This document shows, piece after piece, positions 4,500 through 25,329 of a stretch of DNA of 39,981 nt. Under the pieces are notes generated by a model, which was not told the origin of the DNA, searched no databases, and saw nothing but the letters and a program-made list of their open reading frames with translations. Source of the stretch: Anaerolineae bacterium (GTDB lineage: Bacteria > Chloroflexota > Anaerolineae > B4-G1 > SLSP01); contig JAGPHL010000002.1 in assembly GCA_018055515.1 (NCBI GenBank), forward strand, positions 1-39,981, in the 5' to 3' direction. Both the position numbers and the translations under genes were made by a program. Position 1 is the first letter of the stretch, and each line of letters begins with the position of its first letter.

Positions 4500-5168
4500 A
4501 TGTCCAAACACTTGCGTCTAGGGATCGCCATCCTGGCAATAGGGTTGGCGCTGGCGACGCCGACCGTCGCGCTCGCGTACCAGCATGGCCCGGGGCTTCC
4601 ACCGCCGCCCGAGTGGCCTATCATCGGCCCCATTTTGCGCTGGCTGGGGATAATTGAGGAGACTCCCGCAGAGATGCCAACGTTCGATCCCACCTATACC
4701 GAACATCGCCTCACGACACTCCAGGACGCGCAGTCGCTATGGGAAAGCCTGGAACCTGAGGCGCGCGTCCGCGTCATCGTCGGCCAGGAAGACGCGAACG
4801 CGGCCTTGCAGACAGCGGTGCAAAACGTGCCGGGACTCGACGACGTCACACTCACCTTCGAGAGCGGCTCCATCACCCTGGCGGCGACGGTCAAGCGCTC
4901 GGTGCTGGAACGCCAGGGCGTTCAACTGCCGTTCTTCATCACCAGCCAGGAAATCAAGGGAGAGCTTCAAATCGCCCTGGGCGCTGCGGAATGTCGCCCG
5001 ACCCTCACGGTGCAAAAAGTGCGTCTCGGGAAAATTGGGCTGCCGCTGCGAAGCCTGGCAGAGGAAGCCTTCAATGAGCAAATGCAACAAGAGTGGATGT
5101 CCCAGGTGTGCATCGAGCGCGTCTTCATGCTGCCCGGGGAATTCGCGGTAGAAGGTTATCGGCGCTAA
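4500..5168 (+). CDS. Hypothetical secreted protein
   Basis: The SD AAAGGAGA precedes the ATG. The N-terminus is signal-peptide-like (LRLGIAILAIGLALATPTVALA). No family was recognised. Confidence 0.6.
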   Translation: MSKHLRLGIAILAIGLALATPTVALAYQHGPGLPPPPEWPIIGPILRWLGIIEETPAEMPTFDPTYTEHRLTTLQDAQSLWESLEPEARVRVIVGQEDANAALQTAVQNVPGLDDVTLTFESGSITLAATVKRSVLERQGVQLPFFITSQEIKGELQIALGAAECRPTLTVQKVRLGKIGLPLRSLAEEAFNEQMQQEWMSQVCIERVFMLPGEFAVEGYRR

Positions 5169-5959: not shown

Positions 5960-7192
5960 ATGAACCATTATCCACGGGTCTACCTGAAACCTGGACGCGA
6001 GGCCTCCATCCAACGGCGACATCCCTGGGTGTTTTCCGGCGGAATCGCGCGGGTCGAAGGGCAGCCGGCGCCCGGCGCGCTGGTCGCCCTCCACAGCGCC
6101 GAGGGGAAATTCCTCGCCTGGGGACATTACAGCGCCGCCTCGCAGATTCGCGTGCGGCTGCTCTCCTGGGATCCGGCAGAGGATCCTGAGGCCCCAGAGT
6201 TCTGGCGGACGCGGCTCAAGCGCGCCCTCGAAGCGCGCGCGCCGTTGCTTGCGGACGGACGCACGACGGCCTGTCGGCTGGTCAACGCGGAATCGGACGG
6301 CCTGCCGGGCCTCATCGTGGACCGCTACGGCGACGTCCTGGTGCTCCAGGCCCTCACGGCCGGCATCGAGGCGCGGCGAGCTCTGCTGGGCGAGCTGCTC
6401 GTGCAGGCACTCCACCCCCAGACAATCTATGAACGCAGCGACGCGGACGTGCGGCAGCATGAGGACCTCCCCTCGCGGGTTGGAATCCTCTACGGCGCGG
6501 AACCGCCAGAGACGCTGGAAATCCTGGAAAACGGCCGGCGCTTTCGGGTGGATGTGCGTCGCGGACACAAGACCGGCTTCTACCTCGATCAACGGGACAA
6601 CCGGCGACTGCTCGGCGAGCGGATCGCGGCCCTCGCGCGGGCGGGGCGGCTCCTCGACATGCTCAACGTCTTTTCCTACACGGGCGGCTTTGCCGTTTAC
6701 GCGCTGGCTTACGGCGGCGACGCCGTGCGCAGCATCACCAACGTGGATGTCTCCAACGACGCCCTTCAAATGGGACGCGCCAATCTGGCGCAGAACGGCC
6801 TCAAAGCAGAGCAGGTGACCGACATCAGCGGCGATGCGTTCCAGGTGCTGCGGACACTGCGTCAGCAAGGCCGCTCCTTCGATGTGATCGTGCTCGACCC
6901 GCCCAAATTCGCCTTCACGCAAAAAGACGTCCAGAAAGCCGCGCGCGGCTACAAGGACATCAACTTACAGGCGCTGCACCTGCTGCGCGCCGGCGGCTAT
7001 CTGTTCACCTTCTCGTGCTCCGGGGCAATTTCGGCGGATTTGCTGCAGAAGATCGTTTTCGGCGCCGCCCTCGATGCCGGCCGGGACGTCCAGCTCGTCG
7101 GCTGGATGACGCAGGCCGAGGATCACCCGGTGGCGCTGACCTTCCCCGAAGGCGCCTATCTGAAAGGCTTGCTCTGCTATGTGGCCGCCTAG
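5960..7192 (+). CDS. rlmI: Class I SAM-dependent 23S rRNA (cytosine-C5) methyltransferase, RlmI-like (PUA plus MTase)
   Basis: The N-terminus (L.PGRE.S...RHPW.F.G) is typical of RlmI/YccW. It also shows LVNAESDGLPGLIVDRYGD, KTGFYLDQRDNR and VIVLDPPKF. Confidence 0.87.
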   Translation: MNHYPRVYLKPGREASIQRRHPWVFSGGIARVEGQPAPGALVALHSAEGKFLAWGHYSAASQIRVRLLSWDPAEDPEAPEFWRTRLKRALEARAPLLADGRTTACRLVNAESDGLPGLIVDRYGDVLVLQALTAGIEARRALLGELLVQALHPQTIYERSDADVRQHEDLPSRVGILYGAEPPETLEILENGRRFRVDVRRGHKTGFYLDQRDNRRLLGERIAALARAGRLLDMLNVFSYTGGFAVYALAYGGDAVRSITNVDVSNDALQMGRANLAQNGLKAEQVTDISGDAFQVLRTLRQQGRSFDVIVLDPPKFAFTQKDVQKAARGYKDINLQALHLLRAGGYLFTFSCSGAISADLLQKIVFGAALDAGRDVQLVGWMTQAEDHPVALTFPEGAYLKGLLCYVAA

Positions 7193-9404
7193 CTCCAGCC
7201 CTCCGGTACGACGCCTCGGCGTGCGAGCCGTCGGCTTGCTGATGGCGCTGGCCCTGCTGCTGTCCGTTTCCACAGCGACCTCCGCGCGCAGGCGGGCCGA
7301 CGCCCCCACCCTCGACATCACGCTGCCCTGGGAGGGCGCGGTACGCTTCCCCGGTTGGACCGAGGTGCAGGTGACCCTCACCGCCGCGAAGACCCCCTGG
7401 AGCGGCGAATTGCGCCTCGAGGACCGCGGACAGAAGCTCACCTATCGGCGGGCGCTCACTCTTCCCGCCGGCGGCCGGCAATTCCTCCGCCTGCCGCTCT
7501 ACATCCCCGAATTCAGTCACTACACCCTGACGCTGGTCGAGCAGGGGAAAGCGCCCGCCTCCGGCCAACCCCTGCCCTTGCGTGCACTGGACGCGCAGGC
7601 GCGGTTTTGCGTCGCCGTGGACCCGCTGGGCCGCCTGGCGCCGGGAACGATCAATGGCTGTAAGAGCAGTTTGCTGCTCACCGACCTGGGGACATTGCCA
7701 GAAACCGCGATGGCATGGGATAGCGTGGACGTGTTGATCCTGCACGAGGTCGCGACGAGTGCGCTCACCGCCGCGCAACAGGAAGCGCTCTGGGCCTGGG
7801 TCAGCCTTGGCGGACACCTGACCGTAGTGGAAGGGCCAGGAACCGCGCAAACGCTCGCCGGTTTGCCCCGCGCGCTCCAGCAGGCCCTTGCGGCCCTCCC
7901 CGTGGGGATGACGTCCTCCCTTGGCGCGGGGACCCTCTCCCGCGTGCGGGCAGAAAATCCCGCCGCGACAGACTCCACGGCCTGGTTAGGGGACTGGACC
8001 GGGGAGCGCGTCCCGGCCGTCTCATGGTCGAACCTCAGGATTCCCCCTGCACCAGCGGCCGAAGCGCTCATGTCGGTGCCGCAAGCGTCGTTTCCCCGGC
8101 CGGCGCTGCTGTTGGGACTGCTGCCGGCCTACGCCCTCCTCGTCGGCCCGGGCATGTGGTGGCTGGCGCGGCGCCTGCACCGGCCCCGGCTCGTCTGGTT
8201 GCTGACGCCGTTGATGATCGGGGTGGCCGCCCTGAGCATGTGGCTGGGGCTGACCACGATTGTCGGCGGAGTCTTCCCCATCACCCACGAAATCGCCGTG
8301 ATCTTTGGCAATGACAAGGGAGGCCCGGCACGCGTGCTGCAAACGACGGCCATTTTCGCGCCTCGCGCCCGCGTCCTCACCTGGAACACGCAGCTCGCAC
8401 CCCGCCCTTTCGTCGGCTATTTCGATGCGGCAGCCAGCAGCTACTACTTCACCGCCAACCGGCCTTTCCCCGCCGAGGTGCTGTGGGCTGAAGGGACAAG
8501 CCAGATCCAGGCAACGCATCCCCCCGGCCCGCTCAGCTGGGCCGCAGAGGGGCTGATGACGCTGCCCGCTCTCGAAGCACAACTGGCCTTCGACACCGTC
8601 GCCGGCCGCACGGTGTTGCAGGGGACGCTGCGCAGCGAGATCGCTCTGGAAAAAGCGACGCTCATCCTGGGGGATGGGACCCATCGCCTGGCGTTGGCGG
8701 ATAATGTGCCGGCAGGCGTGCGGACTCAAATTTCTGTGCCGCTCCATTGGGTGCAGGAATTCGACCCCAACCTGCCCATCTGCTCCAACCTGAGCGGCGG
8801 GAATTTCTACTTCCCGTCGGCTGCCTTGACGCCGGTCACACCTCCCGAAAAAGGCTCCAACGTCCTCTGCTATCTGGTCGCGACGACCCCCGGCGTCCCC
8901 TACCCCACCCAGAATGCCAGCCAGAAGCGTGTCGAGGAAAGCTGCCTGATCCTCACCCTCCCCTGTCTGGCTTGGGGAAGTGGTCGTATGCCGTTGCTTC
9001 CCGCCCTCAGTTCCGAGAATCGGGGTTATGGCTGGCTGGATCCGACGGGAGGCGTCGCGCTGGCCAGCACCATGCCGGTGACGCTGATCTACACGCCGCT
9101 ATACTCAGGCACAGGCAACGACGCCTTCTCTGCACAAAGGCTTATCCTCAGCCTTGAGAAAGGAGGGGCGCTGCCGTCCTTCAGCCTGAAAATCTGGAGT
9201 TGGACCACGGAAGAGTGGATATCACAGCCGCCGCCTACGTCCACGGCGCCGCTGATTCTGGAAGGCGAGCTGGCCCGTCAGGTCTACGATCCCCGACAAG
9301 GAGTGCGGGTGCGCATCACCCCGGCTACCGAGACCTACTTCACCTTGTATCTCGACGTGAGCGTCGAAATCGCTTCTCAGAAAATAGAGAGCAGTGAGCC
9401 GTGA
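7179..9404 (+). CDS. Large hypothetical secreted/membrane protein
   Basis: The ATG overlaps the rlmI 3' end by 14 nt. It has a signal-like N-terminus (LLMALALLLSVSTATSA) and central TM segments (LLLGLLPAYALLVGPGMWWL, LLTPLMIGVAALSMWLGL). The last 8 codons lie inside repeat copy 2. The start is uncertain (alternative ATG at 7242). Confidence 0.65.
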   Translation: MWPPSSSPPVRRLGVRAVGLLMALALLLSVSTATSARRRADAPTLDITLPWEGAVRFPGWTEVQVTLTAAKTPWSGELRLEDRGQKLTYRRALTLPAGGRQFLRLPLYIPEFSHYTLTLVEQGKAPASGQPLPLRALDAQARFCVAVDPLGRLAPGTINGCKSSLLLTDLGTLPETAMAWDSVDVLILHEVATSALTAAQQEALWAWVSLGGHLTVVEGPGTAQTLAGLPRALQQALAALPVGMTSSLGAGTLSRVRAENPAATDSTAWLGDWTGERVPAVSWSNLRIPPAPAAEALMSVPQASFPRPALLLGLLPAYALLVGPGMWWLARRLHRPRLVWLLTPLMIGVAALSMWLGLTTIVGGVFPITHEIAVIFGNDKGGPARVLQTTAIFAPRARVLTWNTQLAPRPFVGYFDAAASSYYFTANRPFPAEVLWAEGTSQIQATHPPGPLSWAAEGLMTLPALEAQLAFDTVAGRTVLQGTLRSEIALEKATLILGDGTHRLALADNVPAGVRTQISVPLHWVQEFDPNLPICSNLSGGNFYFPSAALTPVTPPEKGSNVLCYLVATTPGVPYPTQNASQKRVEESCLILTLPCLAWGSGRMPLLPALSSENRGYGWLDPTGGVALASTMPVTLIYTPLYSGTGNDAFSAQRLILSLEKGGALPSFSLKIWSWTTEEWISQPPPTSTAPLILEGELARQVYDPRQGVRVRITPATETYFTLYLDVSVEIASQKIESSEP

Positions 9405-12521: not shown

Positions 12522-13283
12522 TTGAACACCGATCTCGCGCCGTGGGAAGAACGTTGGGTTTGGCTGGGCGGCTCCGTGCTGCTGGCCTGTCTGGTTGCCT
12601 GGACTGGCTGGGCGATTCGCCAGATGGGAGGTGCCCCTCAACGCTGGTATCAGGCGTGGCATCGCTGGCGCGGCCGCCCCTGGATCGAGCAGACAGCGCG
12701 GTTTCTCTACACGATCGGCGTCCCCGCGGCGGCGTTGCTCTGGCGCGGGGTGCTCAAAGAAAGCGCCCTGGGATTACAACCCTTCCCCTGGCAAAGCGAC
12801 GCGCCGCTCACCGCGGCACTTCCCGGCGGTTGGGACAACTGGCTGCGGGACCTGCTGTGGGCACTGGCGCTCGGCGCCGGGATGGCGGTGTTGGTAGCGG
12901 CGACGGTGCGCACCCTCAAACGCGCCGGGGCGTATCGGCTGACCCTGCGACACGATGGCGCTGTGGCGCTGCGTGAGGCGGCGTTCCACGAGACGCATTG
13001 GGCCTTCTACCGTGAGCCTTTCATCCTGCTCTGGGGGATGGAAATCGGCGCGTGGGCCGGGGCATTCCTGGCGTTGCTGGAAGCGGCGGTGAATCCGGCA
13101 TGTTGGGCCAGACTGCGCGATCCCGCCGCCGGTCGTGACCTGGTGCTGCGCCTGGCGCTGGGGATCGCCAGCACCCTGCTCTTTTTGCTGACCCAGAATT
13201 TCTGGTTGACAGTGCTGTTGGACGCCGGCCTGGGCTGGGGGTGGGGGATAGCACACCCACGGCCAGCGTCGCCCGACGCCTGA
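12522..13283 (+). CDS. Hypothetical integral membrane protein
   Basis: TTG start 2 nt after the kinase stop. Several hydrophobic segments are visible. No family was recognised and the start codon is uncertain. Confidence 0.5.
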   Translation: MNTDLAPWEERWVWLGGSVLLACLVAWTGWAIRQMGGAPQRWYQAWHRWRGRPWIEQTARFLYTIGVPAAALLWRGVLKESALGLQPFPWQSDAPLTAALPGGWDNWLRDLLWALALGAGMAVLVAATVRTLKRAGAYRLTLRHDGAVALREAAFHETHWAFYREPFILLWGMEIGAWAGAFLALLEAAVNPACWARLRDPAAGRDLVLRLALGIASTLLFLLTQNFWLTVLLDAGLGWGWGIAHPRPASPDA

Positions 13284-20366: not shown

Positions 20367-21818
20367 TCAGCCCTTGATGACCGCGATAGGTCGCACGCGC
20401 GCCACCTTGCGCGCCAGGCCCGCCCCGACAACGGACTCCACCACCAGGCTGACGTCTTTGTACGCCTGCGGCGCCTCTTCGGCGAGACCCCGCAAGCTGC
20501 CGGTCTGCACGAAAATCCCCTGGCGCTGGAGCTCCGCCTGAACCTGCTCGCCGCGCGTCTGACGGGTCGCGGCCTTGCGGCTCATCGTGCGTCCCGCCCC
20601 ATGGCAGGTGGAGCCGAAAGTCTCCGCCATTGCCTGCGACGTGCCGACCAGCACGAACGACGTCGTGCCCATCGAGCCCGGCACCAGCACCGGCTGTCCC
20701 GTCTTCTGGAAGCGCGCGGCCAGATCGGGATGCCCCGGCGGGAAGGCGCGGGTCGCGCCCTTGCGGTGCACGACGAGTTTCACCGATTTTCCCCCCACGG
20801 TGTGCGTCTCGATCTTGGCGATGTTGTGCGCCACGTCATAGACCTGCCGCAGCTGCCAGTCGCGGACCTTGCCCGCCAGCACCTGCTCGAACGACAATCG
20901 CACGAAATGCGCCAGCACCTGCCGGTTGGCGAAGGCATAGTTCGCTGCAGCGAACATCGCCGCCAGATAGTCCCGCCCTTCCGGCGAATTCAGCGGCGCC
21001 GCGGCCAGCTCCCGATCAGCGATGGGGATGTTGTAACGCTGAGGGGCGTCTTGCAATCGGCGCAGATATTGCCCGCAAACCTCGTGTCCCAGGCCCCGCG
21101 AACCGCAGTGAATCTGCACCACGACGCAGCCCTCCTGGAGGCCCAAGTCGCGCGCTACCTCCGCATCGAAGATCTCGTCCACCACATCTATCTCAAGGAA
21201 GTGATTGCCCGCGCCCAGCGATCCCAGTTGCGGGACTCCCCGCTCCCGCGCGCGCTGCGGCACCGCATCCGGGCGCGCACCGGGGATGCATCCGCCATCC
21301 TCCGTCGCCTCGAGGTCCTCGCGCGTCGCGTAGCCGTTGGCTTTAGCCCACGCCGCGCCGCTCTCAAGCACTTGATCCAACGCCTTGGGGCTCAGGTGAA
21401 CCGCGCCGCCTTCCCCCACACCGCTGGGACAGTTGCGGTAGATCGTCCGCGTCAACGCCTCCAGGTGCGGCATGATTTCTGACTGCGGGATAGTCGAAGC
21501 CAACATCCGCACACCGCAGTTGATGTCGTACCCCACCCCACCGGGGGAGATCAGCCCCGTAGCGACAGGAAACGCCGCGACGCCGCCGATGGGGAAGCCG
21601 TAGCCCTCATGGACATCGGGCATCGCCATGGCCGCCTCGACAATGCCGGGCAGCATCGCCACGTTGCACAGCTGCTGCACCGAACTGTCGCCAAATGCCT
21701 GCTCGAAGACCTCAGCGCTGCCGAAGATGCGCGCCGGCACCTGCATCCGTGGGTCATACGTCTTCGGCAATTCCCAAATGTAGGGGGTCAGTTGTCGGAA
21801 ATGGCGTTTCTCGATCAT
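20367..21818 (-). CDS. rtcB: RNA 3'-phosphate/2',3'-cyclic-phosphate to 5'-OH ligase RtcB
   Basis: 483 aa with hallmark blocks: MPDVHEGYGFPIGGV, GYDINCGVR, GSLGAGNHFLE, HCGSRGLGH, HNIA, GSMGT.SF and the guanylylation His in CHGAGR. Confidence 0.95.
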   Translation of the reverse strand: MIEKRHFRQLTPYIWELPKTYDPRMQVPARIFGSAEVFEQAFGDSSVQQLCNVAMLPGIVEAAMAMPDVHEGYGFPIGGVAAFPVATGLISPGGVGYDINCGVRMLASTIPQSEIMPHLEALTRTIYRNCPSGVGEGGAVHLSPKALDQVLESGAAWAKANGYATREDLEATEDGGCIPGARPDAVPQRARERGVPQLGSLGAGNHFLEIDVVDEIFDAEVARDLGLQEGCVVVQIHCGSRGLGHEVCGQYLRRLQDAPQRYNIPIADRELAAAPLNSPEGRDYLAAMFAAANYAFANRQVLAHFVRLSFEQVLAGKVRDWQLRQVYDVAHNIAKIETHTVGGKSVKLVVHRKGATRAFPPGHPDLAARFQKTGQPVLVPGSMGTTSFVLVGTSQAMAETFGSTCHGAGRTMSRKAATRQTRGEQVQAELQRQGIFVQTGSLRGLAEEAPQAYKDVSLVVESVVGAGLARKVARVRPIAVIKG

Positions 21819-21830
21819 CCTTCACCTCCT

Positions 21831-22751
21831 TCACATATCGAAGACCAGCGTCGTCTCCAGGCCCACAGCGCTCTGGCGGATGGCAATATCGTGGAAGGTA
21901 GCCGCCTTGACCTCATTGCGGCGCGCCGTGACCTGCGCCCCTAGCGCGAGCGCGCGCAGCGCCGTCCCCGTGAGGGTCTCGAAGCGAAAGGCGCCATACG
22001 CCCACTGCCCGGCGCCGGCCTCGCTGAGGTAGAGCAGCTCGTTGAGCCAGTCCACCAGCAACGCCTCCCGATCCCCCGCGCGCAAGGTGACCTGTTCAGC
22101 GTGAGTGAACGTCGGCGCCGTCGCCGCGGCGCTCAGCGAGAACATGCCCCGCGCCGCCGCAACAAACAGCCCCGGCAGGTCCGGCGCCCACACCCGCAAC
22201 GCCAGATCCGCCGTGTGCTCCAGCTCCTCCCAGCCCCCCATCCCCGCCTGCGCCGCGACGATCCATTCCTCGATGAAATTCGCCAACGCCATGTCAGCGT
22301 CGAGGGCGAAGGCAAGCCCATCCCAACTCAAATCGGGCACGTCGGTGACGCAGGCGATGCGCCCAACCAGATCGGGGAGCACATCGGGGGCGCAAGCGGC
22401 GCGCACCACTTCGATTTTGGGCAGCGGGCCGGTTTTATCGCCCTCGACCAGCACGACATCCACATCACGGATCCCGGCAAGCACGTCCCCGAGGGCCGGC
22501 GCGGCGACGCGACGGACCTGCGCCACCCGCTCCGGCGTGATCAACACGGTCTGCACGGCGCCGGCGTCCCAGAAACGACGGGTGTCCTTGCCGGGCAAGT
22601 CAGTCTCGAGGTCGGCGTGTCGCGTGTGCTTGATCGCGGCCACGCGATAGCCACGCTGCGCCAATGCCGCAACCACCCGCTCGAGCACCGTCGTCTTGCC
22701 GACGCCACTTCGCCCCACGAAACTAAAGCAAGGAATGGCCCAACGTTCCAT
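21831..22751 (-). CDS. Two-domain fusion: MobB-like P-loop GTP-binding domain (N-terminal) plus archease (C-terminal)
   Basis: The N-terminal half resembles MobB (FSFVGRSGVGKTT, AAIKHT.H, LPGKDT, VVLVEG.K). The C-terminal half resembles archease (WEELEHTADLALRVW, EALLVDWLNELLY, VKAATFHDIAI). The ATG at 22751 places the P-loop near the N-terminus. A 12-nt spacer with AGGAGGTGA separates the stop from the rtcB ATG. Confidence 0.85.
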   Translation of the reverse strand: MERWAIPCFSFVGRSGVGKTTVLERVVAALAQRGYRVAAIKHTRHADLETDLPGKDTRRFWDAGAVQTVLITPERVAQVRRVAAPALGDVLAGIRDVDVVLVEGDKTGPLPKIEVVRAACAPDVLPDLVGRIACVTDVPDLSWDGLAFALDADMALANFIEEWIVAAQAGMGGWEELEHTADLALRVWAPDLPGLFVAAARGMFSLSAAATAPTFTHAEQVTLRAGDREALLVDWLNELLYLSEAGAGQWAYGAFRFETLTGTALRALALGAQVTARRNEVKAATFHDIAIRQSAVGLETTLVFDM

Positions 22752-23136
22752 TTTCAGATTCCGTTCCGCCTGTCGGGCGGCGCTCCCAGGATTCCAGGAA
22801 TTCGCGCACCAGAGTGAAAATTTCTTGGGGAGCAAGCGCGCTGGTGTCGAGGTAGAAATCGCAGTGCTGACGGGCATGGGCCAACCGGAACTCGCGCTCC
22901 TCCACCCACCAGGATGAAGGCGCCGCCAGTCCCTCGCGCTGAGCCGCGACGTCCATGCTCACATCGAGGTAGATCAACACATCGGGGTGGGTGAGGCGCT
23001 GCCACATAGTCGGCGTTACCGAATGCTCCTGGCGAATCTCGCGCACCTCGTATCCCGCAGCGCGCAGCCGCCGCGCGAGCACCGACTTGCCCGCAGAGCA
23101 CGGCCCCACGATTCCGACCAGTGGCTTCGTTGTCAC
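22723..23136 (-). CDS. Small P-loop NTPase/kinase-like protein (137 aa)
   Basis: Walker A GPCSAGKS at residues 11-18 and a Walker-B-like VLIYLD. GTG start. The 3' end overlaps the next gene by 29 nt. No specific family was recognised. Confidence 0.6.
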   Translation of the reverse strand: MTTKPLVGIVGPCSAGKSVLARRLRAAGYEVREIRQEHSVTPTMWQRLTHPDVLIYLDVSMDVAAQREGLAAPSSWWVEEREFRLAHARQHCDFYLDTSALAPQEIFTLVREFLESWERRPTGGTESENGTLGHSLL

Positions 23137-23163: not shown

Positions 23164-23197
23164 AAAAAAAATAAAACCTTGCGCTCGGGTCGCAATT
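23164..23197 (-). terminator. Candidate intrinsic terminator after the PP2C gene
   Basis: The minus strand reads TTGCGacccgagCGCAAggTTTTATTTTTTTT. The stem is short (5 bp) but the U-tract is long. Confidence 0.45.
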
Positions 23198-23235: not shown

Positions 23236-23952
23236 CTATCCCAGATCATCCGGAAGCGGCATCTCCACCCGCATGAAGCGCGGCCCGGCAGTAGCACCGG
23301 GGAGCACTTGCAGCACCGCCACGCTCGCGTCGTCCAGCGGACGTTGCTCCTCGAGCTCCAACGCCCGCGCCAACAGGCCGTCGGCGAGCGCCTGCGCCGC
23401 CGGGGAAACTTTCCACAGCGCGGCCAGCGTCGCCGCCACATCGAGCGCTTGCCCTTTACGGCTACCCGCGTGCAAGACCCCATCGGTGAACGCGCACAGC
23501 ATCCAATTGGGCTCCAGCGGCAGCGAATCCACCAGCGGACGCACGTGACGGTAAAAGCCCAGCGGCGGCGCGGTCCCTTCCAAACGGCGGAAGCCTCCCT
23601 CCGGCTCCCGAAGGTAGACTTCCGGGTTGCCGCAGCGAGTGACGACCAGCGAATGGCTTGCCAGGTCGGCCGAGAGAATGACGAGGGTCGCGGAGACTTT
23701 GCCGTCGCGCAGCGCATAGAGGACGTCGTTCGCGGCGCGAGCTGCCGCGCCATCGCGCACCCCCTCCGCCAGATCGGCGATGACCTTCCGCACAACCCAC
23801 ATGCTCACCTGTTTGGCGGCGCGCCCGGAGCTCTGCCCGTCTACCAGCACCACCGAAAGCCCGCCGCGGGGACGCTCGATCATCTCCAACGTATCGCCGC
23901 TCTGCTGCACGGCCCATTTGTTGATCTTCGCCGCCGCCGCCGAAAGATGCAT
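23236..23952 (-). CDS. Stand-alone PP2C/SpoIIE-family serine/threonine phosphatase
   Basis: GD..E (SGDTLEMIE), VVLVDGQSSG, AFTDGVLHAG and a C-terminal DDASVAVL match the metal-binding blocks of PPM phosphatases. Confidence 0.78.
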   Translation of the reverse strand: MHLSAAAAKINKWAVQQSGDTLEMIERPRGGLSVVLVDGQSSGRAAKQVSMWVVRKVIADLAEGVRDGAAARAANDVLYALRDGKVSATLVILSADLASHSLVVTRCGNPEVYLREPEGGFRRLEGTAPPLGFYRHVRPLVDSLPLEPNWMLCAFTDGVLHAGSRKGQALDVAATLAALWKVSPAAQALADGLLARALELEEQRPLDDASVAVLQVLPGATAGPRFMRVEMPLPDDLG

Positions 23953-24571: not shown

Positions 24572-24639
24572 CATAGCCAGGGACGGGCAAACAGGACAGG
24601 TCCCCTCCCCTTAATTCACGTCCCGCAAGGATGGCGATT

Positions 24640-25329
24640 ATGGAATTACGATCGTACTTCAAATATCTGTTGCGGCGCTGGTGGCTGGCAGCTCTGCCGG
24701 TGCTTGTCGTCGCCGCGTATGTGGCGCTGACCTTTCACCCGGCGTCCCCGACTTATCAAGTGGTGATGCGCTTTGCTACGGGGACGGAGCCGGCCGACCT
24801 CTCGGTTGATTACGATCGCTACTACCCCTGGCTCACCTCCGAGTATATCGCCAACGCGCTGGCAGACGTCGCAGTGACCCAGGGTTTCGCTCAGGCAGTG
24901 TCGGAGCGGCTCACTGCGCAGAATCTCCAGGTAGCGGCGGGCGCGCTGCAAGCCAACATCGCCAGCGATAACGTCCAATCGGTCTTCATCATCTATTTCA
25001 ACTGGCCTGATCCCGCACAATGCGTGCAGATCGCCGAGGCCATCAGCGCGGAGCTGACCGAAAACGCCGCCGCGTATTTTCCCCAGCTCGACGGCGTCGG
25101 CACGCCGGCCCGACGCCTCGACGCGCCCTATCCCGCCCTCATGGCGCCCTCATTGCGCTCACGCCTGCTCGGACCGGGGCTGAAACTGCTCCTCGCGGTC
25201 GTGGCCGGATTGGCACTGGTACTGCTGAGCTACTATCTTGATCCCTACATCTACAACAGCGAGGATGTGGAGACGGCGGGGGTGAAAATCCTCGGCGCCG
25301 TGCCGGGAGCAAAACGCGCGCTCCACTAG
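24640..25329 (+). CDS. Wzz/chain-length-determinant-like protein (two TM, no kinase domain)
   Basis: The MELRSYFKYLLRRWW N-terminus followed by a TM is typical of Wzz/CpsC-type proteins. A second TM lies near the C-terminus. An alternative ATG lies at 24631. Confidence 0.68.
   Translation: MELRSYFKYLLRRWWLAALPVLVVAAYVALTFHPASPTYQVVMRFATGTEPADLSVDYDRYYPWLTSEYIANALADVAVTQGFAQAVSERLTAQNLQVAAGALQANIASDNVQSVFIIYFNWPDPAQCVQIAEAISAELTENAAAYFPQLDGVGTPARRLDAPYPALMAPSLRSRLLGPGLKLLLAVVAGLALVLLSYYLDPYIYNSEDVETAGVKILGAVPGAKRALH

Follow-up and report, generated by a model that had tools for sequence, protein, structure and literature searches.

A MobB-archease fusion upstream of rtcB in an Anaerolineae genome, and the possible recruitment of MobB to RNA ligase activation

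What might a MobB protein be doing in the operon of an RNA ligase? The stretch of DNA that raises this question is a 39,981-nucleotide (nt) piece of contig JAGPHL010000002.1 (positions 1 to 39,981; assembly GCA_018055515.1) from an Anaerolineae bacterium, hereafter the window, in which one gene of 306 amino acids (aa) joins a MobB domain to an archease domain and is followed directly by the gene for the RNA ligase RtcB. MobB binds GTP, yet its role has stayed unclear for decades, and the structural understanding of how archease activates RtcB is recent, so that a natural fusion of the two, if real and if functional, bears on both. From comparison of sequences and gene order, we put the probability that MobB has been functionally recruited as a GTP-dependent accessory of archease-assisted RtcB activation at roughly 0.45, that is, a little short of even odds.

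An initial annotation, made from the letters alone, had read the first half of the fusion as MobB, the second half as a full archease and the next gene as RtcB, and all three assignments hold. Profile searches place both domains above their cutoffs. For the first half, Pfam MobB (PF03205) covers aa 9-125 (E 2e-32, 112.3 bits against a cutoff of 26.6), the NCBI equivalog model for mobB (TIGR00176) gives 112.5 bits against a cutoff of 76.2, the sequence of Escherichia coli MobB (1np6) matches aa 5-165 (E 1.9e-18), and Foldseek retrieves the MobB structures 1np6, 1p9n, 2f1r, 1xjc and 4nkr (E 3e-10 to 1e-5). The domain thus shares its fold and family with E. coli MobB (1np6/1p9n; Foldseek E 3e-10), including the Walker A motif, and its motifs can be read in order as GRSGVGKTT (aa 13-21), IKHT (40-43), PGKD (53-56), VLVEGD (100-105) and PKIEV (111-115).

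For the second half, Pfam Archease (PF01951) covers aa 174-305 (E 1.8e-27, model positions 1-135 of 136), Pyrococcus horikoshii archease (4n2p) matches by sequence (E 1.4e-10), and Foldseek finds human archease (8btx, 8odo; target-normalised TM 0.70-0.74, rmsd 2.1-2.4) as well as the P. horikoshii protein, with the archease-RTCB complex among the matches. Mutagenesis of P. horikoshii archease has shown that His9, Asp12, Lys117, Asp141 and the C-terminal residue are required for RtcB activation (PMC3973293), and in human archease D51 and K156 are needed for RTCB activation (PMC10944509). Their counterparts lie in EHTAD (aa 178-182), VKAATFHD (281-288) and the C-terminal VFDM (303-306), and by this alignment the archease half retains the residues that activate RtcB in characterised systems. 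The downstream gene matches RtcB (PF01139) over the full model length (positions 1-426 of 426, E 1.7e-169), and its translation carries the active-site motifs DINCG, GNHF, HCGSRG, AHNIAK and CHGAGR, which match residues known from human RTCB: the Asp, Cys and His that bind metal, and the His that is guanylylated (PMC10944509).

The archease and RtcB parts therefore resemble the known RtcB-archease operon of tRNA splicing and RNA repair (PMC3973293; PMC4604427), in three respects: rtcB is directly preceded by a co-directional archease, archease keeps its activating residues, and RtcB has intact active-site motifs. What is new here is the MobB gene joined to this otherwise known operon: the bacterial and archaeal rtcB-archease operons illustrated in PMC3973293 contain no MobB, whereas in the window MobB is co-translated with archease as one protein. 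Among NCBIfam MobB fusions, the partners are MobA, MoeA, FeS domains or a domain named only as unknown, and fusions to MoaC were seen in our homolog search.

Before asking what the fusion means, we considered whether a sequencing, assembly or frameshift error has simply joined two genes, as most relatives have them separate (more than 100 clusters of stand-alone archeases of 134-136 aa, and about 47 of stand-alone MobBs). However, at 90% identity the fusion protein falls in a cluster of 44 sequences, drawn from NCBI, JGI, ENA and Logan assemblies; a single one of them occurs on 36 contigs, and all come from uncultured Anaerolineae or Chloroflexota and all are annotated simply as MobB. The homolog search added 13 further clusters at 49-67% identity with the same MobB and archease architecture. 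The start Met of the ancestral archease survives inside the fusions, as M171 in the window protein, and in one related locus (L012; L numbers denote the homologous contig loci that we compared with the window) its codon has mutated to GTG and encodes a Val inside the fusion. The AlphaFold2 model of the fusion (pLDDT 87.7) is also confident across the junction, with the C-terminal helix of MobB (aa 153-171) running continuously into the first archease strand (aa 173-177). The junction error against which the initial annotation had warned is thus excluded by near-identical fused sequences from independent assemblies together with the more distant clusters, and we give an artefact practically no chance.

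The association of MobB with archease and RtcB is not confined to the fused proteins. Eleven lineages were compared (window/L001, L002, L008/9, L010/11, L012/13, L014, L015, L016, L097, L098 and L100/101), with MobBs at least 47% identical to that of the window, and in 11/11 archease and RtcB follow MobB immediately. The closest stand-alone MobBs (47-61% identity; L002, L014, L015, L016, L097 and L098) show the order mobB, a 133-135-aa archease gene and rtcB, and in these unfused trios mobB ends where archease begins, the stop and start codons overlapping or all but touching, as TAATG, TGATG or TAAGTGATG. Looking for co-occurrence of the fusion with rtcB thus turned up unfused trios as well, with every compared lineage of the MobB clade linked, and the link between MobB, archease and RtcB is older and wider than the fusion itself.

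Two kinds of locus show how the trio behaves when its surroundings change. In L015 it lies downstream of a CRISPR RAMP gene and an ECF transporter and is followed by a hydrolase, with neither of the two genes, encoding a PP2C phosphatase and a small P-loop protein, that precede it in the window, and in L009 it has a different upstream region. In L102 and L103, conversely, the PP2C and P-loop genes are kept and the whole trio is absent. No molybdenum-cofactor genes were found within 5-6 kb of any RtcB-linked MobB in the related lineages, and there were none among the 26 Pfam-scanned open reading frames (ORFs) of the window, which bears out what the initial annotation had observed there.

As a control for specificity, a metagenome scan with the MobB alignment listed 80 loci, with MobBs 34-52% identical, and did not extend the clade. 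Archease or RtcB occurred within 5 kb in 0/80 of these listed loci, and the trio was also absent at the nearest outgroup that was looked up (P0069, 44% identity). Their nearest neighbours instead included matches to MoeA (18), MoCF_biosynth (19), a MobA-like transferase (8) and MoaA (4-5). In a tree of 148 sequences, the 60 RtcB-linked MobBs cluster in a clade that contains none of the other 88, and they share the signature T43, R58, W61 and R131, which is found in 0-10% of the others; substitutions of this signature fall in the PGKDTRRFWDAGA loop next to the P-loop. The MobB of the window therefore differs from other MobBs both in belonging to this separate clade and in lying beside archease-rtcB, not beside molybdenum-cofactor genes. 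At the same time, the family-wide MobB residues (Walker A GxxGxGKT, KH, D51, D56, R59, D98, EG and PKIEV) are kept in the window protein and in 60/60 clade members, and roughly thirty positions conserved in both MobB groups are retained by the RtcB-linked MobBs.

The fusion itself may have arisen more than once. In a neighbour-joining tree of RtcB all MobB-linked loci group together, and within them the fusions with a short linker (window and L012) fall with the unfused L015, L014 and L002 (bootstrap 63-71%), with the long-linker fusions (L008 and L010) placed elsewhere. Because short- and long-linker fusions stand apart in this tree with unfused loci between them, MobB and archease probably fused on two or more separate occasions, although the tree falls short of proof. 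A further locus, L100 (5462-6715), has MobB and archease in one frame with a tandem-repeat linker of about 115 aa (APQSAD... / SRRMRH...) that contains Ns, and may be either a third independent fusion or an assembly problem.

On one hand, these patterns suggest a functional tie; on the other, an ordinary molybdenum- or tungsten-cofactor mobB could have come by chance to lie upstream of an ancestral archease-rtcB pair, with synteny keeping the order and with the fusion being a harmless loss of a stop codon. Several observations speak for this account and against recruitment. The neighbourhood of ten genes is syntenic as a whole, with YajC, PP2C, the P-loop gene, the trio, the cold-shock gene (CSD), an aminotransferase, Impact_N and GT2 kept in most of these genomes, and unrelated genes overlap mobB as well (the P-loop gene in the window, the ECF S-component gene in L015); in so syntenic and tightly packed a neighbourhood, conservation and spacing are weaker evidence than usual. 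With TAATG-like junctions and an in-frame arrangement, as in L014, a fusion is only one mutation away. The MobB domain still passes the mobB equivalog model and keeps the positions shared by both MobB groups, and a molybdenum-cofactor gene is the nearest neighbour in only about one third of the other MobB loci. A scan of genome contigs, which gave two close loci and archease-RtcB pairs from other phyla, showed the pairs of Planctomycetia, Gemmatimonadales, Myxococcota and Nitrospiraceae without an adjacent MobB.

Archease is, moreover, found fused to other proteins. The first homolog search returned about 20 clusters in which RibF (FAD synthetase) is fused to archease, and one fusion of a GHMP kinase to archease (P0113). 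In sister Anaerolineae, RibF::archease (L104 5001-7914 and L105 3638-6551) stands at the end of a nusA-infB-rbfA-DHH-truB-ribF operon, with rtcB about 70 nt downstream, and the RtcB of this locus branches just outside the MobB-linked clade (58% identity); this archease-RtcB pair has no MobB beside it. The arrangement is like that of MobB::archease in having archease C-terminal, the immediately upstream gene as partner and RtcB downstream; it differs in that the partner is an FAD synthetase closing a housekeeping operon. This is the same type of fusion with an unrelated gene, and its existence indicates that archease readily fuses to whichever gene precedes it, with no evident link to RNA ligation. 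It also counts against recruitment that stand-alone archease is the majority state; all of the best 120 matches listed in an archease-profile search were stand-alone.

Set against a neutral neighbour are the trio's persistence when both flanks change (L015) and its absence as a unit (L102), the link in 11/11 lineages against 0/80 other listed MobB loci, the clade-specific substitutions in the loop next to the P-loop, and a fusion that probably arose at least twice. We regard chance adjacency as the main rival, only somewhat less likely than recruitment. The recruitment of MobB is favoured because the three genes behave as a unit, because the link is exclusive to and holds throughout one clade, because that clade has signature residues, because fusion was probably repeated, and because the function fits mechanistically with what is known of archease.

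If MobB has been recruited, a MobB-family P-loop GTPase would have been gained by one Anaerolineae clade as a third, co-translated component of its RtcB-archease operon, and the stop codon between mobB and archease would then have been lost in this genome to give one polypeptide. Since MobB structures are dimeric, the MobB domain would probably present two archease domains. The nearest solved P-loop folds outside MobB, according to Foldseek, are HypB, MeaB/MMAA and FtsY/SRP54. HypB and MeaB/MMAA are GTP-binding accessories that load a metal or a cofactor onto a client enzyme. Profiles of G3E metallochaperones (HypB, UreG, MeaB and CobW) gave no match above threshold (MeaB: E 0.0019, 17.7 bits against a cutoff of 23.1), so the likeness to HypB and MeaB is only an analogy for mechanism.

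The step at which MobB might act is suggested by the archease cycle. Self-guanylylation of RtcB depends on GTP and Mn2+; archease brings a third metal ion and the phosphates of GTP into position and may help to remove pyrophosphate, its activation of RtcB depending on Mn2+ and on this phosphate positioning, and it must depart before RNA binds (PMC10944509). Archease also broadens the nucleoside triphosphate (NTP) use of RtcB (PMC3973293). In the archease step, the Mn2+/GTP-dependent guanylylation of the active-site His of RtcB, MobB could act as an adaptor or switch that depends on GTP, and it may time the docking of archease on RtcB and its release. Alternatively, it may make sure that the right metal is loaded at the tip of archease and in the active site of RtcB, a role for which the related metallochaperone GTPases HypB and MeaB offer parallels, as does the platform for metal (tungstate) insertion that MobB forms with MoeA1 (PMC13197769); all of these are GTP-binding accessories that aid the loading of metal or cofactor onto a client enzyme. 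A passive hand-over of GTP to RtcB appears mechanistically the less likely option, and a GTP-dependent switch or metal handling would fit this class of protein better. A role in docking and release or in metal fidelity seems more plausible given the archease cycle, the HypB- and MeaB-like folds and the MoeA1-MobB precedent. The specific proposal that MobB is a dedicated third component of the RtcB system, acting as a dimeric GTP-dependent switch or metal-fidelity factor over the Mn2+/GTP loading by archease, is more tentative than recruitment as such, and we hold it as possible while somewhat doubting it.

The dependence could also run in the reverse direction, with archease as a general activator of nucleotidyl transfers that release pyrophosphate, serving also the guanylyltransferase MobA (the partner of MobB) and the FMN adenylyltransferase RibF, to which its fusions would then point. 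This would suit its positioning of NTP phosphates and a third metal and its possible promotion of pyrophosphate removal (PMC10944509), as well as the broader NTP use that it confers on RtcB (PMC3973293), and two of the three fusion partners do act in pathways of NTP-dependent nucleotidyl transfer. The remaining partner, GHMP kinase, spends its ATP on phosphorylation, however, such kinases being phosphotransferases and not enzymes of nucleotidyl transfer; MobA is not encoded nearby; and RtcB is directly downstream in every case, which alone explains the presence of archease. A general activator role thus seems to us very improbable.

The small P-loop gene that overlaps the fusion gene had been proposed in the initial annotation as a nucleotide or polynucleotide kinase-type accessory of RtcB, and this did not survive comparison. 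Its 137-aa product has only sub-threshold Pfam matches (AAA_18, CPT and RapZ-like_N) and no profile above cutoff in Pfam or NCBIfam, and similarity to polynucleotide kinases of the Pnkp/Clp1 type was found neither in Pfam, NCBIfam or PDB sequence searches nor among the best folds. Its AlphaFold2 model (pLDDT 86) is closest in Foldseek to the N-terminal domain of RapZ (5o5q and 8b0i; E ~1e-3, TM 0.55-0.61), followed by the N-terminal domain of Rv1421, shikimate kinase and guanylate kinase. The protein resembles the RapZ N-domain and small-molecule P-loop kinases in fold and Walker A motif; it differs from them in its short core of some 115 aa, which lacks a lid and a substrate-binding domain, and from RapZ in having a PP2C phosphatase as conserved partner in place of an RNA-binding domain. 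The PP2C gene lies directly upstream in every locus that has the P-loop gene, including those that lack the trio (L102 4281-5363 and L103 719-1801), where the pair is followed by DUF5673, DUF5981, MTHFR and MetH. As the pair occurs without the trio in these loci and the trio without the pair in L015, they are two separable modules that are usually adjacent, and membership of the P-loop protein in the RtcB module is ruled out. In the window the P-loop gene is predicted to be co-transcribed with the trio while belonging to this separate PP2C/P-loop pair.

At E <= 1e-3 the P-loop family comprises 330 clusters. Those listed, 120 in number, have identities of 56-99%, and all organism-bearing source names among them are Anaerolineae, Anaerolineales or Chloroflexota. 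Its invariant motifs are VGPCxxGK, EIRQEH, YLDV and RLAHAR, with an invariant Cys inside the Walker A motif (GPCxxGK), and it has no characterised relative. In Anaerolineae the PP2C and P-loop genes form a closely spaced, conserved pair, and their products may be an undescribed regulatory couple of a phosphatase and a kinase-like protein. Longer proteins with this small P-loop domain, joined to HD-GYP/GAF, transketolase, IPPT or beta-helix partners, were set aside as heterogeneous and resembling gene-call noise, and they gave no hint of function. Models of PADLOC defence systems, run against four proteins, gave only generic P-loop matches (E > 1e-3).

The layout of the locus is given in Table 1. 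The initial annotation had described three tightly coupled genes, and the coupling is borne out by the sequence: the fusion gene (ATG at 22751) overlaps the P-loop gene by 29 nt, and rtcB begins 12 nt beyond the fusion stop, behind AGGAGGTGA. The longest ORF would start the fusion at 22877 and give 348 aa; this start was rejected in favour of the ATG at 22751 because the N-termini of homologs (M-x-IPCFSFVGRSG) fit the 306-aa protein. Of the terminator-like signal that had been placed between the PP2C and P-loop genes, the hairpin and T-run are indeed present (a pattern scan finds a 5-bp stem at 23195-23179 on the minus strand, then the T-run), but the signal is weak and such sites are not enriched in the window (6 seen against 3.5 +/- 2.0 expected from shuffled sequence). 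In several other loci the PP2C/P-loop gap is only about 10-25 nt, against 99 nt in the window, so the terminator is not a conserved feature.

Table 1. Positions of the mobB-archease-rtcB genes, their domains and the adjoining features in the window
Feature	Position	Strand	Details
Small P-loop NTPase gene	22723-23136	-	137 aa, GTG start, Walker A GPCSAGKS
MobB::archease fusion gene	21831-22751	-	306 aa, PF03205 + PF01951
MobB domain, aa 1-170	22242-22751	-	Walker A GRSGVGKTT aa 13-21 = 22689-22715
Archease domain, aa 171-306	21834-22241	-	EHTAD aa 178-182 = 22206-22220
Fusion stop codon	21831-21833	-	
Spacer of 12 nt with Shine-Dalgarno-like AGGAGGTGA before rtcB	21819-21830	-	Sequence reading
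RtcB RNA ligase gene	20367-21818	-	483 aa, PF01139
PP2C/SpoIIE-type phosphatase gene	23236-23952	-	238 aa, PF07228 E 9.5e-24
Weak terminator-like hairpin and T-run	23165-23195	-	Pattern scan; in the 99-nt PP2C/P-loop gap

Some of the related loci depart from this layout. In L001 (metagenome-assembled genome AMR_MDS_1531), 93-98% identical to the window, about 250 extra bases separate the fusion stop from the ribosome-binding site of rtcB. This stretch (6921-7184, corresponding to 21819-21830 of the window) contains a perfect 36-bp direct repeat (6943-6978 and 7133-7168) that neither the window nor any other locus has, and Rfam gives no match to it. The operon could here have been split by a small insertion or a duplication. 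In L097 (4089-5539) RtcB matches as three pieces in three reading frames, with a called gene of only 251 aa, and is either a pseudogene or affected by assembly frameshift errors. In L015 (5444-6513) mobB starts on the last base of the gene for the ECF-transporter S-component, with a type III CRISPR RAMP/Cas6 cluster close by on the upstream side.

Elsewhere in the window, yajC lies upstream, beyond the PP2C gene, and the cold-shock gene lies downstream of the trio on the opposite strand. The 26 ORFs of the Pfam scan include most of the large ones, with a 232-aa ORF at 24631-25329 (+) outside it, and three of them had no Pfam match at E <= 1e-5 (7179-9404, +, 741 aa; 4500-5168, +, 222 aa; 12522-13283, +, 253 aa). 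The remaining genes of the window are of housekeeping or envelope type (YidC, RsgA, YchF, NrdR/NrdJ, a sortase, glycosyltransferases and an S8 peptidase). Rfam gave no match in the window.

In the literature search, MobB and archease never appeared together, the RNA-repair survey of Burroughs and Aravind lying outside that search, and the papers that name both MobB and RtcB treat unrelated topics to judge by their titles and abstracts. This agrees with the initial expectation that no MobB-archease fusion had been characterised. As a natural fusion within a conserved operon, the arrangement described here could lead to a new helper protein for RNA ligation and to an activity not yet known for the MobB family. 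If MobB has indeed been recruited to the activation of RtcB, the family would for the first time have a function outside molybdenum/tungsten cofactor assembly, and, taken with RibF::archease, this would hint that archease cooperates more broadly with nucleotide-handling proteins. If instead the association is neutral, it would serve as a warning that the "Rosetta stone" inference of function from fusion fails for genes with overlapping stop and start codons in tightly packed genomes.

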